DNA of 32,000 nt. It comes from Pseudodesulfovibrio piezophilus C1TLV30 (GTDB lineage: Bacteria; Desulfobacterota; Desulfovibrionia; Desulfovibrionales; Desulfovibrionaceae). The translations under genes and the position numbers were made by a program. Position 1 is the stretch's first letter. Each line of letters begins with the position of its first letter. The DNA lies in NCBI RefSeq assembly GCF_000341895.1, contig NC_020409.1, forward strand, positions 1,380,001 to 1,412,000. The letters run 5' to 3'. Positions 24,718 through 27,810 of the stretch are shown here, in pieces. Under the pieces are notes generated by a model. It was not told the origin of the DNA and made no database searches. It was given only the letters and a program-made list of their open reading frames with translations.

Positions 24718-24999
24718 AAGTTATTTCAAACAGCTCGTATTTGCCTCGGGTAATGGAGGGTTGATTATGAGTTTACTTTGAGCACTGGCCAGCGCGGCTA
24801 AATACGCGCCTGAAAAACCTGTCAAGCACAATCGATCGAACCCAGCCTGTTTTTGGGCGACGGATGCGTGCATTTTGCCGACATGAAATCGTTGTTGAAC
24901 GACAACGCCGTGTTTCGCTCATTTGGGCCGAAAAACCCATGGTACGCTCTCCGCAAACAAAAACAGGGCCGTCTAGCTCAGTGGTCCGGAGGAGATCCT

Positions 25000-25356
25000 A
25001 TGAGCGTATTTGAAATGAGGCTGAAGCATGACCGGAACGGTCGAATCGTGGAGAGAACAGAAACCGTGGCCGGTCGGACCAACGTTTGGAGGTATGCCTA
25101 CGACAAGGCCGGGAGGCTCTTCGAGGCGCACCGGGAAAACCGGCTCATCTGCCAGTGCTGGTACGACCGGGAAGGCCGTCGCCAGCGGGACTATTTCCCC
25201 GCCACCGTGGGGTCCAGTCATCGCGATTATCGCTACACCCTGGACAACCGACTTATGAGCGCGGGCAACAACGGGTACACACATGACAAGAACGGGTCCC
25301 GTTCCATCTGGTCGAACGGCTCCGCGTACCATCTGTACGAGTACGCGCCGGACTAA
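25000..25356 (+). CDS. RHS/YD-repeat protein fragment (ends at in-frame TAA 25354-25356)
   Basis: YD repeats are visible (WRYAYDKAGRL, CWYDREGRR, YRYTLDNRL, YTHDKNGSR). ATG 25000 has a strong RBS (GGAGGAG). The track ORF starts earlier, at TTG 24853. The same frame continues after the stop into 25369-26247. Confidence 0.6.
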   Translation: MSVFEMRLKHDRNGRIVERTETVAGRTNVWRYAYDKAGRLFEAHRENRLICQCWYDREGRRQRDYFPATVGSSHRDYRYTLDNRLMSAGNNGYTHDKNGSRSIWSNGSAYHLYEYAPD

Positions 25357-25368
25357 CGGCTGCTCAAG

Positions 25369-26247
25369 ATGGAAGTGGAGAACCAGAACCGCGTCTACAC
25401 CTTTCGCCACGACGAAGAGGGCCGACGGGCCGCCAAGTACCTCAACGGCCAAATTGTCGAGGCCTACCAATGGTTCGACTTCATCCGCCTCGGCGCGTTC
25501 CACGACGGGCACATGGGGTACGAGTTCGGTTACGCAGATAACGCGCGGCTGCCCTTATCCATGCGGCGCGAGGACGGGGCGGTGTTCGCCCTGCATTACG
25601 ACCAGGTCGGTTCCCTGCGCGTGGTTGCTGACACGGATGGCGACATGATAAAGGAAATCCTCTACGATCCCTTTGGCGGAATTATAGCGGACACCAATCC
25701 CGGTTTCCGCATCCCCATCGGCTTTGCGGGCGGCCTGCATGACCGCGATCTTGGTTTCGTGAGATTCGACTGGCGGGACTACGACACCTTCACCGGCAGA
25801 TGGACCGCACCCGATCCCATCGGGGACAGGGGCGGTGATCCGGACTGGTATGGGTATTGTCTGGATGATCCGGTCAACGGGGTGAACCCGGTGGGACTGT
25901 TCCGGTTCGGTAAAAAAGGACTGTGGATACTGCCCGGTATAGGCACCGACGGCTCTACCGCCGATAAGAGAAACTATGAACTCAAGCATGAACACGGTTT
26001 CTACGAAGATGGTACGGGAGATAATGTAGGTCTGTTTAAAAATGGTATCAAAAGAGATCAAGATATCATCAAATACAAACTTGACGAAACACACTTCGAC
26101 GATAAACGCATGAGACAGGCTGAAGAGAGTCTTTATCCGGGAAATTACAAGCTGTGCAAGTGGGGAGGCAAGTCCAATAATTGCCAGGACTATGCCGATG
26201 CTTTGCGCGAACGTTATCGGTTTTTACGCACTGCGGAAAAGCACTGA
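25369..26247 (+). CDS. RHS repeat-associated core C-terminus fused to a polymorphic toxin tip (CT1, papain-like His...Cys signature)
   Basis: FRHDEEGRR, YDQVGSLR, YDPFGG and GFAGGLHDRDLGFVRFDWRDYDTFTGRWTAPDPIGDRGGDPDWYGYCLDDPVNGVNPVGL form the RHS core end with the DPxGL demarcation. A 115-aa variable tip follows, containing KHEHGFYEDG ... YKLCKWGGKSNNCQDYADAL. Confidence 0.8.
   Translation: MEVENQNRVYTFRHDEEGRRAAKYLNGQIVEAYQWFDFIRLGAFHDGHMGYEFGYADNARLPLSMRREDGAVFALHYDQVGSLRVVADTDGDMIKEILYDPFGGIIADTNPGFRIPIGFAGGLHDRDLGFVRFDWRDYDTFTGRWTAPDPIGDRGGDPDWYGYCLDDPVNGVNPVGLFRFGKKGLWILPGIGTDGSTADKRNYELKHEHGFYEDGTGDNVGLFKNGIKRDQDIIKYKLDETHFDDKRMRQAEESLYPGNYKLCKWGGKSNNCQDYADALRERYRFLRTAEKH
25670..25890 (+). 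repeat. RHS core-end repeat, copy 1
   Basis: 221 bp repeated at 26848-27068 (offset 1178). The copies are near-identical except for a 14-nt divergent patch (25699-25712) and 3 SNPs. Confidence 0.9.
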
Positions 26248-26298
26248 TGCAACAATACGGCCGGGAGACAATTGTCTCCCGGCTGAAAAGGGATTTTT

Positions 26299-26835
26299 AT
26301 GAAAGGTTTAAAGATACTCCTTCTCTGCCTCGTTCTTGGAGGCGTATTATTGTATAATTCCAACTGGTTTCAGTCATTTTTCCTGTACAACCGTTTTTAC
26401 GAGAACATAGTTGATGTACCATTCGATGTGACAAAAAAAGGGGAGACGATTTCCCTTTCACTCAAGCACAAATTCAATACTTGCTATGAGTTGAATGTGG
26501 GGGTTCTTGATAAATACATTTTTCATCGTGGCACTGTTGGCCCAGGGGCTTTGAGGTATCGATTCATTTCAAGAGGCCAAGTCATCAAAGAAGGATTCAC
26601 CTTTCCAGCGGAGAGAAATAATCTCACACTTTATCGAGGGGTTACTTTGATAACCATACTGGTATTCGACCTCCCTTTCCCCGGCGCAGGGAGTGATGTA
26701 TCGCTGGAATTGACAGTAGATACCCCCATGACCTTTCTCAATGAATATGCAGGCAAAATTAAATGCAGCATCCGACCCAACTATAGTGCAGACAGGGGTG
26801 GCTGCGATGAGGAATTACGAATAGACTCCATGTAG
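26299..26835 (+). CDS. candidate immunity protein for CT1, N-terminal signal peptide/TM anchor
   Basis: It starts 52 nt after the toxin ORF, with RBS AAGGGA. MKGLKILLLCLVLGGVLLY is a hydrophobic leader. The GC is visibly low and no domain was recognised. Confidence 0.6.
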   Translation: MKGLKILLLCLVLGGVLLYNSNWFQSFFLYNRFYENIVDVPFDVTKKGETISLSLKHKFNTCYELNVGVLDKYIFHRGTVGPGALRYRFISRGQVIKEGFTFPAERNNLTLYRGVTLITILVFDLPFPGAGSDVSLELTVDTPMTFLNEYAGKIKCSIRPNYSADRGGCDEELRIDSM

Positions 26836-26843
26836 CTCCGTGA

Positions 26844-27395
26844 GATTCCTTTGGCGGAATTATAGCGGACACCAATCCATGCCTGTGCGTACCCATCGGC
26901 TTTGCGGGCGGCCTGCATGACCGCGATCTTGGTTTCGTGAGATTCGGCTGGCGGGACTACGACACCTTCACCGGCAGATGGACCGCACCCGATCCCATCG
27001 GGGACAGGGGCGGTGATCCAGACTGGTATGGGTATTGTCTGGATGATCCGGTCAACGGGGTGGACCCGTTTAGTTTGTTTCAAATCATCGGCGATGGTCC
27101 CGGTGGCAGGATCGGCGGCGGTATAATCGGCGGGGCGATTTCAGGTGCCATCGATGGAGGCATCACCATGGGGCCTTTTGGCGCTTTGACTGGCGCTGCT
27201 GTCGGCGGTGCGCTTGGTGGATTGTGGTCTGTTGTCGATGAGATACCCAATAATCCATCCAACAATTCTCCCGGCGGCAGTGGCGGTTCCAGTTCAGGGT
27301 CGTCAGGGCCAGGAAGTGGGTCAGATTCCTCTGGCGGTGGTAGTACTTCCGGTGGAGAAGGGTATGACGGTGGTGGCGGATGGTACGGTAGATAA
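26844..27395 (+). pseudogene. orphan RHS C-terminal cassette 2 (74 aa of core end plus glycine-zipper / Gly-Ser-rich tip CT2), no ATG start
   Basis: The open frame begins right after TGA 26841. It reads FGGIIADTNP...GFAGGLHDRDLGFVRFGWRDYDTFTGRWTAPDPIGDRGGDPDWYGYCLDDPVNGVDPFSL. The tip then reads GGRIGGGIIGGAISGAIDGGITMGPFGALTGAAVGGALGGLW and ends in a GSGGSSSGSSGPGSGS... tail. Only a GTG at 26937 is available as a start. Confidence 0.75.
26848..27068 (+). repeat. RHS core-end repeat, copy 2
   Basis: See copy 1 at 25670-25890. Confidence 0.9.
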
Positions 27396-27426
27396 ATACC
27401 AATATGGACAATGCCATGAGGAATAA

Positions 27427-27646
27427 AATGAATTGTACAGAGTGTGACGGGAAAATCCATAAATTGGATAAACGGATTGGAGGCCTAGTATGTATAGCCT
27501 TGGGCCTAGTAACCAGTCTCAGCGTATCTATGGATAATCCTTTTCATTGTACCAGGCTTGATACTTTTACTGTCTAGGCCCAGATATAAATTCTGGTGCC
27601 CACGCTGTAAAAAGATGGTTTCACCCAAAGAAGTCAAAGGGATCTA
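27427..27646 (+). pseudogene. small split zinc-ribbon two-TM protein, frameshifted; candidate immunity for CT2
   Basis: ATG 27427 has RBS GAGGA. Frame 1 reads MNCTECDGKIHKLDKRIGGLVCIALGLVTSLSV... and stops at 27574. Frame 2, open from 27512, reads ...LWIILFIVPGLILLLSRPRYKFWCPRCKKMVSPKEVKGI*. Joined, these give CxxC, TM, TM, CxxC. A terminator follows at 27650-27685. Confidence 0.4.
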
Positions 27647-27649
27647 GAC

Positions 27650-27685
27650 AAAGGCCAACTGCCATATGGAGGAGTTGGCCTTTTG
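27650..27685 (+). terminator. rho-independent terminator
   Basis: AAGGCCAACT-loop-AGTTGGCCTT followed by TTG. Confidence 0.6.
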
Positions 27686-27810
27686 AATTAGGTATGGTGT
27701 CCCCCTAATTTGATTTGTCATGGCGAGTGGTGGGCAACATCGTCGTCTGGCGGACTGTTTTTCGTAAGGCGATTATAGCTGCCCTTACTGCCCTCGCTCA
27801 CCAGAAAAGC

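Follow-up and report, generated by a model that had tools for sequence, protein, structure and literature searches.

Rhs toxins are understood through a closed cocoon of YD repeats, which encloses the toxin and sits on a secretion spike. In the enterobacterial rhs loci that were reportedly described by Poole et al. in 2011 (in E. coli, Salmonella and Dickeya), a main gene is accompanied by downstream orphan modules, which consist of an rhs C-terminal tip (rhs-CT) and its immunity gene. Orphan rhs-CT can be activated by recombination, and the main and orphan Rhs-CT/immunity pairs of Salmonella Typhimurium act as type II toxin-antitoxin (TA) modules from internal promoters (PMC7043789). Here we analyse an Rhs locus in a 32,000-nucleotide stretch of Pseudodesulfovibrio piezophilus C1TLV30 (contig NC_020409.1, positions 1,380,001 to 1,412,000). 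This whole stretch is called the window below, and all positions are numbered within it. We believe that the locus is likely a polymorphic toxin/immunity array of a compact Rhs family, consisting of one main gene and one displaced orphan tip, and that it is decaying in this genome.

Like the enterobacterial loci, the array combines a GC-rich conserved core end closing in DPxGL with a low-GC variable tip and an immunity gene. Its orphan fragment keeps only the last ~80 core codons, and through the hundreds of bp of direct homology the main tip could be lost and the orphan joined to the main gene. Unlike those loci, the main gene has 415 codons, with a scaffold of 300 aa, compared to ~1400 codons, and it has neither an N-terminal PAAR/VgrG-binding region nor adjacent vgrG or type VI secretion system (T6SS) genes. 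The host also differs, being a sulfate-reducing member of the Desulfovibrionaceae, and both the main gene and the orphan immunity gene appear inactivated. With its conserved core end, tip displacement and orphan retention, the genetics of the locus is thus that of a classical rhs locus, whereas the carrier is a 300-residue scaffold without a shell. As an array it is of an ordinary kind, and decaying; what deserves interest is the family of shell-less scaffolds.

Core-end repeat, main gene and orphan cassette

The array is organised around a direct repeat of 236 nt per copy (Table 1), in which 219 of the 236 positions are identical (93%) and the longest perfect runs are 72, 55, 42 and 31 nt. 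The original prediction, made from the bare sequence, had described a core end conserved at the DNA level over 221 bp (25670-25890 versus 26848-27068), and the real span proved to be slightly longer. Both copies matched the TIGR03696 Rhs_assc_core model above its cut-off of 32.5 bits (58.1 and 53.8 bits; E = 9e-16 and 2e-14), and both encode an Rhs core end, which reads ...GFAGGLHDRDLGFVRF(D/G)WRDYDTFTGRWTAPDPIGDRGGDPDWYGYCLDDPVNGV... The two copies part abruptly right after ...DPVNGV(N/D)P(V/F)(G/S)L, with unrelated tips beyond, as had been claimed for a DPxGL-type demarcation. The core end aligned to the final residues that RhsP (8h8a), Tse5 (8cp6_B) and a teneurin-like protein (9ifo) have in their post-cleavage chains, so that both tips start exactly at the self-cleavage point of known Rhs proteins. 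The scaffold retains the Rhs C-terminal motif that marks the tip cut-off point in the solved Rhs proteins. The GC content of the first tip (CT1) is 45% compared to 60% for the scaffold, and tips and immunity genes lie at 42-45%; this difference is the classical rhs signature of imported tips. A small open reading frame (ORF) is found 3' of each tip, which agrees with the placement of an immunity gene after both, except that the second ORF (27404-27577) turned out to be the front half of a frameshifted gene. Repeat, core, variable tips and cognate immunity genes together sustain the identification of the locus as an Rhs-type polymorphic toxin/immunity array. A search for paralogues in the same population with an exact 30-mer of the repeat gave 0 matches among metagenome contigs.

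In tblastn, a query of the 300-aa scaffold covered 25000-25899. The ATG at 25000 falls on the aligned Met column of the homologues (MSVFEMRLKHD...), and a Shine-Dalgarno (SD) sequence, GGAGGAG, ends 6 nt ahead of it. Judged from its sequence, the main gene (25000-26247) is dead in this genome through an in-frame TAA at 25354-25356, a lesion absent from the original prediction; the near-identical metagenome contig L001 has TAC (Tyr) at the same site. Like TIGR03696, PF05593 RHS_repeat scored above its cut-off, on 24853-25353 (E = 2.4e-5; 25 bits, cut-off 22), as did TIGR01643 (20.9 bits, cut-off 15.8). The scaffold matched PF25023 at positions 780-866 of 909. NF041261 RHS_core gave 22.8 bits against a cut-off of 2000, with only positions 1159-1261 of ~1260 matched, so that a complete shell-forming core was not found with this model. 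An N-terminal delivery module (PAAR, prePAAR/transmembrane domain or VgrG-interacting region) was not found by Pfam or NCBIfam either, and the protein opens with the first YD hairpin. The ~400 codons of YD region that had been placed before cassette 1 shrink to ~222 codons ahead of the repeat, within a whole scaffold of 300 codons. Nor is cassette 1 the orphan of a long rhs gene that had been proposed: it spans residues 1-300 and has the start, SD and leader that belong to the family.

The leader (~190 nt) holds a TGTCAAG block, a promoter-like block GAAAACC..TGRTAYGCT and the SD. In the aligned upstream regions (L003-L030) the promoter-like block takes the form GAAAACC(N3-5)TG(R)TAYGCT and sits 45-60 nt before the start; in some clades a GC-rich hairpin precedes the SD. 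The leader is shared among family genes in unrelated genomic contexts, and DNA homology between the window and L003, the locus of the closest intact relative, starts at 24807. Since indels break the reading frame in relatives, the leader is non-coding, and a coding reading of 24853-24999 was rejected on this ground and because the homologues start at the Met of 25000. A sigma-54 promoter in the leader (TGGTACGCTCTCCGCA) was also rejected, as its GG/GC elements are not conserved across the loci. Rfam over 24600-27900 returned no RNA element, and a promoter/terminator consensus scan showed no excess over the shuffled expectation.

CT1 resembles the PPPDE (Peptidase_C97) and LRAT members of the NlpC/P60 papain-like superfamily in its size of ~115 aa and in the permuted order His...Asn-Cys. 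His30-Glu31 and Asn93-Asn94-Cys95-Gln96-Asp97 were invariant in all 17 tips of the CT1 type. Below the Pfam threshold, Peptidase_C97 (PF05903) was matched by 5 of the 17 and LRAT (PF04970) by 2, and more distant homologues found in a tip-profile search bear precomputed PF05903 or PF04970. A PDB profile search with CT1 gave 0 matches. CT1 is probably a permuted papain-fold Cys-His hydrolase. Homologues of Imm1, the putative cognate immunity protein, begin 50-150 nt after CT1-type tips (~20 pairs); most tips of the CT1 type in the fetched loci have such a homologue behind them. With 26 ORFs in 17 loci of 12 genomes, the Imm1 family is the one neighbour, small membrane proteins aside, that recurs across the 57 related loci, from 19 genomes, that we compared; Imm1 itself had no Pfam, NCBIfam or PADLOC match. 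The amidase effector-immunity pairs of the T6SS, Tae/Tai, offer an analogy for CT1 and the signal/anchor-bearing Imm1. Between the two genes lies a palindrome, which reads GCCGGGAGAC AATT GTCTCCCGGC. In L003 an insertion sequence (IS) element is inserted between the toxin gene and the palindrome site, and homology to the window resumes exactly at 26260.

Cassette 2, which starts 9 nt beyond the stop codon of Imm1, retains no more of the scaffold than residues 223-300 and is without ATG, the first possible in-frame start being GTG at 26937, and it is therefore a true orphan, as had been predicted. Its tip, CT2, has a Gly-zipper-like hydrophobic segment, then a Gly/Ser-rich tail ending in GGGGWYGR; it contains 18 overlapping GxxxG motifs and matched no Pfam family at E <= 0.05. 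Glycine-zipper membrane-inserting toxins include Tse4/Ssp6 of the T6SS and CdzC/D-type bacteriocins. CT2 is like these in its ~45-residue run of GxxxG/AxxxG, and in relatives the partner gene encodes a small protein with two transmembrane (TM) helices; it is unlike them in matching no Pfam glycine-zipper model and in its long Gly/Ser tail, and the likeness is one of composition alone. The CT2 tip type is also carried by 10 full-length family members in other species (e.g. P0038, 409 aa). A 27-bp in-frame indel in the Gly-rich part of CT2 (window 27089-27115) sets the window apart from L001 and from a second near-identical metagenome contig, L002.

Intact Imm2 homologues were found directly after CT2-type tips in two other species (L004, 83 aa; L063, 89 aa) and consist of two TM helices between two CxxC motifs. 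In the window Imm2 is split: residues 1-36 match at 27428-27535 and residues 43-80 at 27516-27629, in a different frame (joint E = 7e-21). As no differences from L001 were found in this stretch, the lesion appears to be present in L001 too.

Table 1. Positions of the features of the Rhs locus, in window numbering.
Feature	Position	Strand	Evidence or remark
Conserved non-coding leader	24807-24999	+	Alignment with upstream regions of 14 other family genes
Compact Rhs toxin gene (putative), 415 codons, pseudogene	25000-26247	+	Homologues of 410-420 aa start at the aligned Met
YD/Rhs scaffold, 300 codons, ending in putative autoproteolysis motif ...DPIGD...DDPVNGVNPVGL	25000-25899	+	tblastn, hidden Markov models, fold
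Premature stop TAA, codon 119	25354-25356	+	Relatives have TAC/TAY (Tyr); column ...APDYRLLK...
Core-end direct repeat, copy 1	25666-25901	+	219 of 236 positions identical to copy 2
CT1 toxin tip, 115 aa + stop	25900-26247	+	Putative PPPDE/LRAT-like (permuted papain-fold) Cys-His hydrolase
Perfect palindrome with 10-bp stem, GCCGGGAGACAATTGTCTCCCGGC	26260-26283		Between CT1 stop and Imm1 start
Imm1, putative cognate immunity gene of CT1, intact, 178 aa	26299-26835	+	N-terminal hydrophobic signal/anchor
Orphan rhs-CT cassette, 78 core-end codons + 105-aa CT2 tip	26844-27395	+	Core-end match, no ATG start
Core-end direct repeat, copy 2 (5' end of orphan cassette)	26844-27079	+	tblastn: scaffold residues 223-300 only
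Imm2, putative cognate immunity gene of CT2, pseudogene	27428-27647	+	Frameshift at ~27516-27535

The compact Rhs family and its scaffold

A search with the reconstructed cassette 1 protein returned 648 matches. Among the best 120 of these, almost all of which came from Pseudodesulfovibrio and other Desulfovibrionaceae, the median length was 419 aa and the maximum 593 aa. The DPxGL motif ends at residue 300 in the relatives (25th-75th percentile 300-301) and is followed by tips of 80-170 aa, while the aligned N-termini of the homologues all begin at a single Met column. At least 20 unrelated tip clusters are carried on this one scaffold, including Tlde1/YkuD, SAA-like, DUF6973 and PPPDE-like tips. 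Across 34 full-length copies, dN/dS was 0.27 for codons 1-220 (interquartile range 0.21-0.35), the part that orphan fragments are without, and 0.085 for codons 221-300, the core end. The scaffold is under purifying selection, and the window copy is the only one of the 34 with a genuine internal stop. Purifying selection, the conserved start, SD and leader, the 20 or more tip families and the absence of a close long Rhs from the scan described below indicate that the compact form is, as far as sequences tell, a real full-length protein family and not a silent cassette. By the same token, the missing shell is read as a family trait and not as a truncation.

The original prediction had the core-end homology serve tip swapping with an rhs gene of full length elsewhere. 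The homology is indeed of a kind that permits tip switching; it is the partner that did not hold up. An every-sequence HMMER scan of 1.84 billion representatives (50%-identity clusters) found no protein longer than 1000 aa above 231 bits (44% identity), and everything above 232 bits was at most 787 aa long. Three of the long matches had their source looked up: one came from a Pseudomonadota metagenome-assembled genome (MAG), one from a Chloroflexota MAG and one was nameless. With no long Rhs above ~45% identity among the representatives, a long master rhs that shares the core end and recombines with the cassettes is unlikely. The recombination partners are likely other short paralogues; up to 7 dispersed scaffold loci were found in one related genome. 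A full scaffold followed, 0.7-1.3 kb on, by a fragment starting at about residue 215-270 recurs in many of the 57 loci. The tips, as had been expected, vary among relatives: L003 carries a different orphan tip at the same position.

The scaffold is the counterpart of the last ~300 residues of the classical long Rhs core. The closest intact homologue, P0001, was modelled with AlphaFold2 (AF2), and its residues 1-250 are folded into beta-hairpins in the model. Foldseek searches with this model superposed ~275 residues on teneurin YD shells (TMq 0.56-0.59), whereas bacterial Rhs and TcC shells were matched less closely (TMq 0.27-0.51); the ~275 superposed residues make up 12-22% of the target shell chains. 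The scaffold is thus predicted to share the YD beta-hairpin fold of the solved cocoons (7q97 RhsA, 7pq5, 8cp6 Tse5, 8h8a RhsP, 8uxt Tse15, 4o9x, 4igl) and teneurins (6fb3, 9ifo), and with the solved Rhs, TcB-TcC and teneurin proteins it shares a C-terminal core with a putative aspartyl autoproteolysis motif. Unlike those shells it has no closed cocoon, N-terminal plug or delivery domain, and only the C-terminal core region of the scaffold resembles TccC. As modelled, the 300-residue scaffold is too small to form a closed cocoon as a monomer.

The original prediction had also noted the lack of delivery genes nearby, and this was confirmed. PAAR, VgrG and other secretion families gave no Pfam match in the window ORFs scanned, and the Pfam lists of the called genes in the fetched loci contain no vgrG, PAAR, chaperone or T6SS gene. 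Besides small membrane proteins, immunity genes were the only recurrent neighbour families across the 57 loci. No TcB- or TcA-like neighbour, such as the TcC of a Tc toxin would have, was present in any locus examined. The compact Rhs proteins themselves carry no signal peptide or delivery domain. In the literature we found no paper linking Rhs/YD proteins or T6SS with Pseudodesulfovibrio.

The family keeps the cleavage core, the tip/immunity polymorphism and the orphan displacement of Rhs loci with roughly one quarter of a shell and with neither a mounting domain nor secretion genes linked to it, and it is nonetheless maintained by purifying selection in Pseudodesulfovibrio and related sulfate reducers. 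This makes it a small, tractable system for asking what an Rhs protein minimally needs in processing and export. It also carries a warning for annotation: a short 'RHS repeat-associated core' protein need not be a fragment.

Three further observations concern the relatives and their tips. Four distant short relatives (P0126, P0127, P0128 and P0147; ~50% identity) have a conserved N-terminal extension of ~100 aa without a Pfam match and with the motif …WIQYADGTFEPVR…WW.V.KP..WRPW…SWNH…; this extension may be a delivery or adaptor domain that is absent from the Pseudodesulfovibrio clade. A 1912-aa Rhs protein from a Chloroflexota MAG (P0242) aligned to query residues 5-406, including a CT1-like tip, and the CT1-like toxin type thus also occurs on a conventional long Rhs in another phylum. 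Finally, many unrelated tips (P0001-P0120) end in aromatic and then basic residues (GGGGWYGR, GFWGR, WWGR, WWGK, WWFK, TWKK, YWSR, EWRKRR), an ending found in the window at 27381-27392, and these ends may reflect a shared C-terminal signal or structural requirement.

Decay of the array and competing explanations

L001 and L002 are 99.2-99.3% identical to the window from 24883 onward, with contig ends that fall within the Rhs gene or at its edge. In L001 the Tyr is restored at 25356, yet a +1 insertion is found at 25215. In a third lineage, L064, the frame is shifted near codon 90-100, and an Imm1 homologue that is cut by the contig end lies downstream. These different lesions indicate that the CT1-bearing gene was hit independently several times. 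The window and L001 differ at 22 positions in the scaffold and at 0 in the 945 nt of CT1-Imm1, and two of the six differences within the repeat match copy 2; this pattern fits gene conversion among scaffold copies. Imm1 showed zero differences from both L001 and L002. An intact silent reservoir, as originally envisaged, is contradicted by the nonsense codon in the main gene and the frameshifted orphan immunity gene, and the only working part in this genome is probably Imm1.

We propose that in relatives with an intact gene the protein would cut itself after DPxGL, and that the tip (here the putative Cys-His hydrolase) would, once exported by unlinked machinery, act on the cell envelope of bacteria nearby, while membrane-anchored Imm1 would shield the producer. 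The 236-nt repeat would be the footprint of an earlier C-terminal displacement, in which a newer CT1-Imm1 pair (43-45% GC) entered by recombination at the conserved core end (60% GC) and displaced the older CT2 in the downstream direction. If the two repeat copies underwent RecA-type recombination, 1178 bp would be lost and the scaffold joined to CT2. In the decayed array, Imm1 is probably retained as protection from CT1-armed relatives.

Several points speak against this account of a decaying array. Toxicity, immunity and autoproteolysis are all putative. The window CT1 scored 13.5 bits against PF05903, below the threshold of 29.2, which sets it apart from accepted PPPDE/LRAT members; an AF2 model of the CT1 tip alone was poor (pLDDT 57), and Foldseek with this model gave noise only. 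A partial shell cannot surround a toxin as the known Rhs cocoons do, so that delivery is assumed by analogy, and no linked export system was found in the window or in the 57 loci. Intact paralogues or a second Imm2 copy may be present elsewhere in the genome. Reinitiation at ATG 25369 could also give a 292-aa product from the main gene.

As to how such a protein would be delivered, we can only tentatively suggest that the compact scaffold is a self-sufficient, shell-less Rhs carrier, which may oligomerise into a cocoon or dock on an unlinked, possibly novel, export machine. The partial YD sheet is conserved, comes with its own leader and a repertoire of tip families, and is multiplied as cassettes beside tRNA genes. 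If the suggestion is true, closed-cocoon encapsulation is not obligatory in Rhs toxin biology.

Compact Rhs genes might alternatively be internal TA-like or selfish addiction modules instead of exported weapons, which we regard as improbable. The absence of delivery domain, signal peptide and linked secretion genes from the 57 loci would suit such a role, as would the position of the modules next to tRNA genes and integrases, and Rhs-CT/immunity pairs are known to work as type II TA modules from internal promoters (PMC7043789). Like those Salmonella Typhimurium pairs, the compact genes combine an Rhs-CT and an immunity gene without a delivery part and may be kept for reasons other than delivery. 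The Salmonella pairs, however, are fragments of, or lie inside, long rhs genes by a T6SS, whereas here the short form is a conserved full-length gene, and the immunity proteins look membrane- or periplasm-located: Imm1 has an N-terminal hydrophobic signal/anchor and the Imm2 homologues have two TM helices. Tips of the Tlde1/YkuD peptidoglycan-enzyme type and the glycine-zipper membrane segment likewise point to extracytoplasmic targets, and 300 conserved scaffold residues, kept under purifying selection, are more than a TA module would require. Envelope-type tips together with membrane-located immunity proteins argue for export over a purely intracellular TA role.

It is slightly less probable still that the locus remains active, either because translation restarts at ATG 25369 (Met124), yielding a shortened scaffold with CT1, or because the TAA is a sequencing error. 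This ATG lies 13 nt past the stop in a frame that stays open to 26247, and neither the catalytic residues of CT1 nor any part of Imm1 is damaged. Against this, no SD precedes 25369, residues 1-123 are conserved and constrained across the family, and the other disabling lesions of the same gene in related lineages fit relaxed selection. The least probable explanation is that both cassettes are silent orphan tips, a reservoir from which a shell-bearing, T6SS-delivered rhs elsewhere captures tips by recombination across the 221-236-nt core end. The repeat is real, as is the orphan nature of cassette 2, the scaffold does correspond to the end of a long Rhs core, and the 22 scaffold differences from L001, against none in CT1-Imm1, hint at gene conversion from other copies, but 44% protein identity cannot sustain homologous recombination, no long rhs with a near-identical core end was found in the sequenced relatives examined, cassette 1 has the start, SD and leader of its family and an N-terminal 220 codons under purifying selection in relatives, and the immunity gene of CT2 is broken.

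Genomic context

Compact-Rhs modules are found beside tRNA genes. In the window the Rhs locus sits just downstream of tRNA-SeC. P. thermohalotolerans has three tandem compact-Rhs modules (L004 4097-11888 and L005 9545-12147), each placed after a complete copy of tRNA-Thr(GGT). The repeat unit there (tRNA, leader and scaffold) is 1.26-1.35 kb long and 95-97% identical, stops at the tip junction; beyond it, the tip and the immunity gene differ from module to module. In D. caledoniensis the same site is present, with two copies of tRNA-Thr. The arrangement in the two species suggests cassette accretion at a tRNA gene.

After tRNA-SeC (17486-17579), an islet of 5.7 kb has been inserted in the window, and a 69-nt repeat (23292-23360), 96% identical to the 3' half of the tRNA, closes it. 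The islet contains an IS200/IS605-type transposase ORF (18185-18637), split vWA-like ORFs, unassigned ORFs and a tyrosine integrase split in two ORFs on the minus strand (21962-22477 and 22567-23220). Between the tRNA-SeC repeat and the Rhs leader lies a broken gene for a Fic-domain protein, which is not at this position in L003; its three ORF fragments occupy 24177-24717 on the minus strand, with HPFxDGNGR in 24529-24717 and a Pfam Fic match at E = 6e-7.

On the other side, a decayed transposase gene of the IS4/IS5 family (28212-29101, minus strand), with DUF4096 and DDE_Tnp_1 in separate short ORFs, forms the right boundary of the Rhs locus. Between it and Imm2 lies an 80-aa ORF (27857-28099, minus strand) with Cys pairs, zinc-ribbon-like and weakly matching LysW; like Imm2, it had no family match in Pfam, NCBIfam or PADLOC. 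It is 89% identical to positions 969-1208 of L052, from another Desulfovibrionaceae MAG, where it also adjoins an orphan Rhs core end. PADLOC returned nothing on the locus, PHROGs gave one weak match, to a giant RHS-like family, and a scan of viral contigs found no relative. Farther upstream, the window has two tRNA-Glu(TTC) genes (10611-10688 and 14008-14085), the flanks of which give similar spurious ORF translations. The 3.3 kb between them hold an aldehyde dehydrogenase gene and a stretch of 41% GC, and this interval may be another tRNA-flanked insertion.

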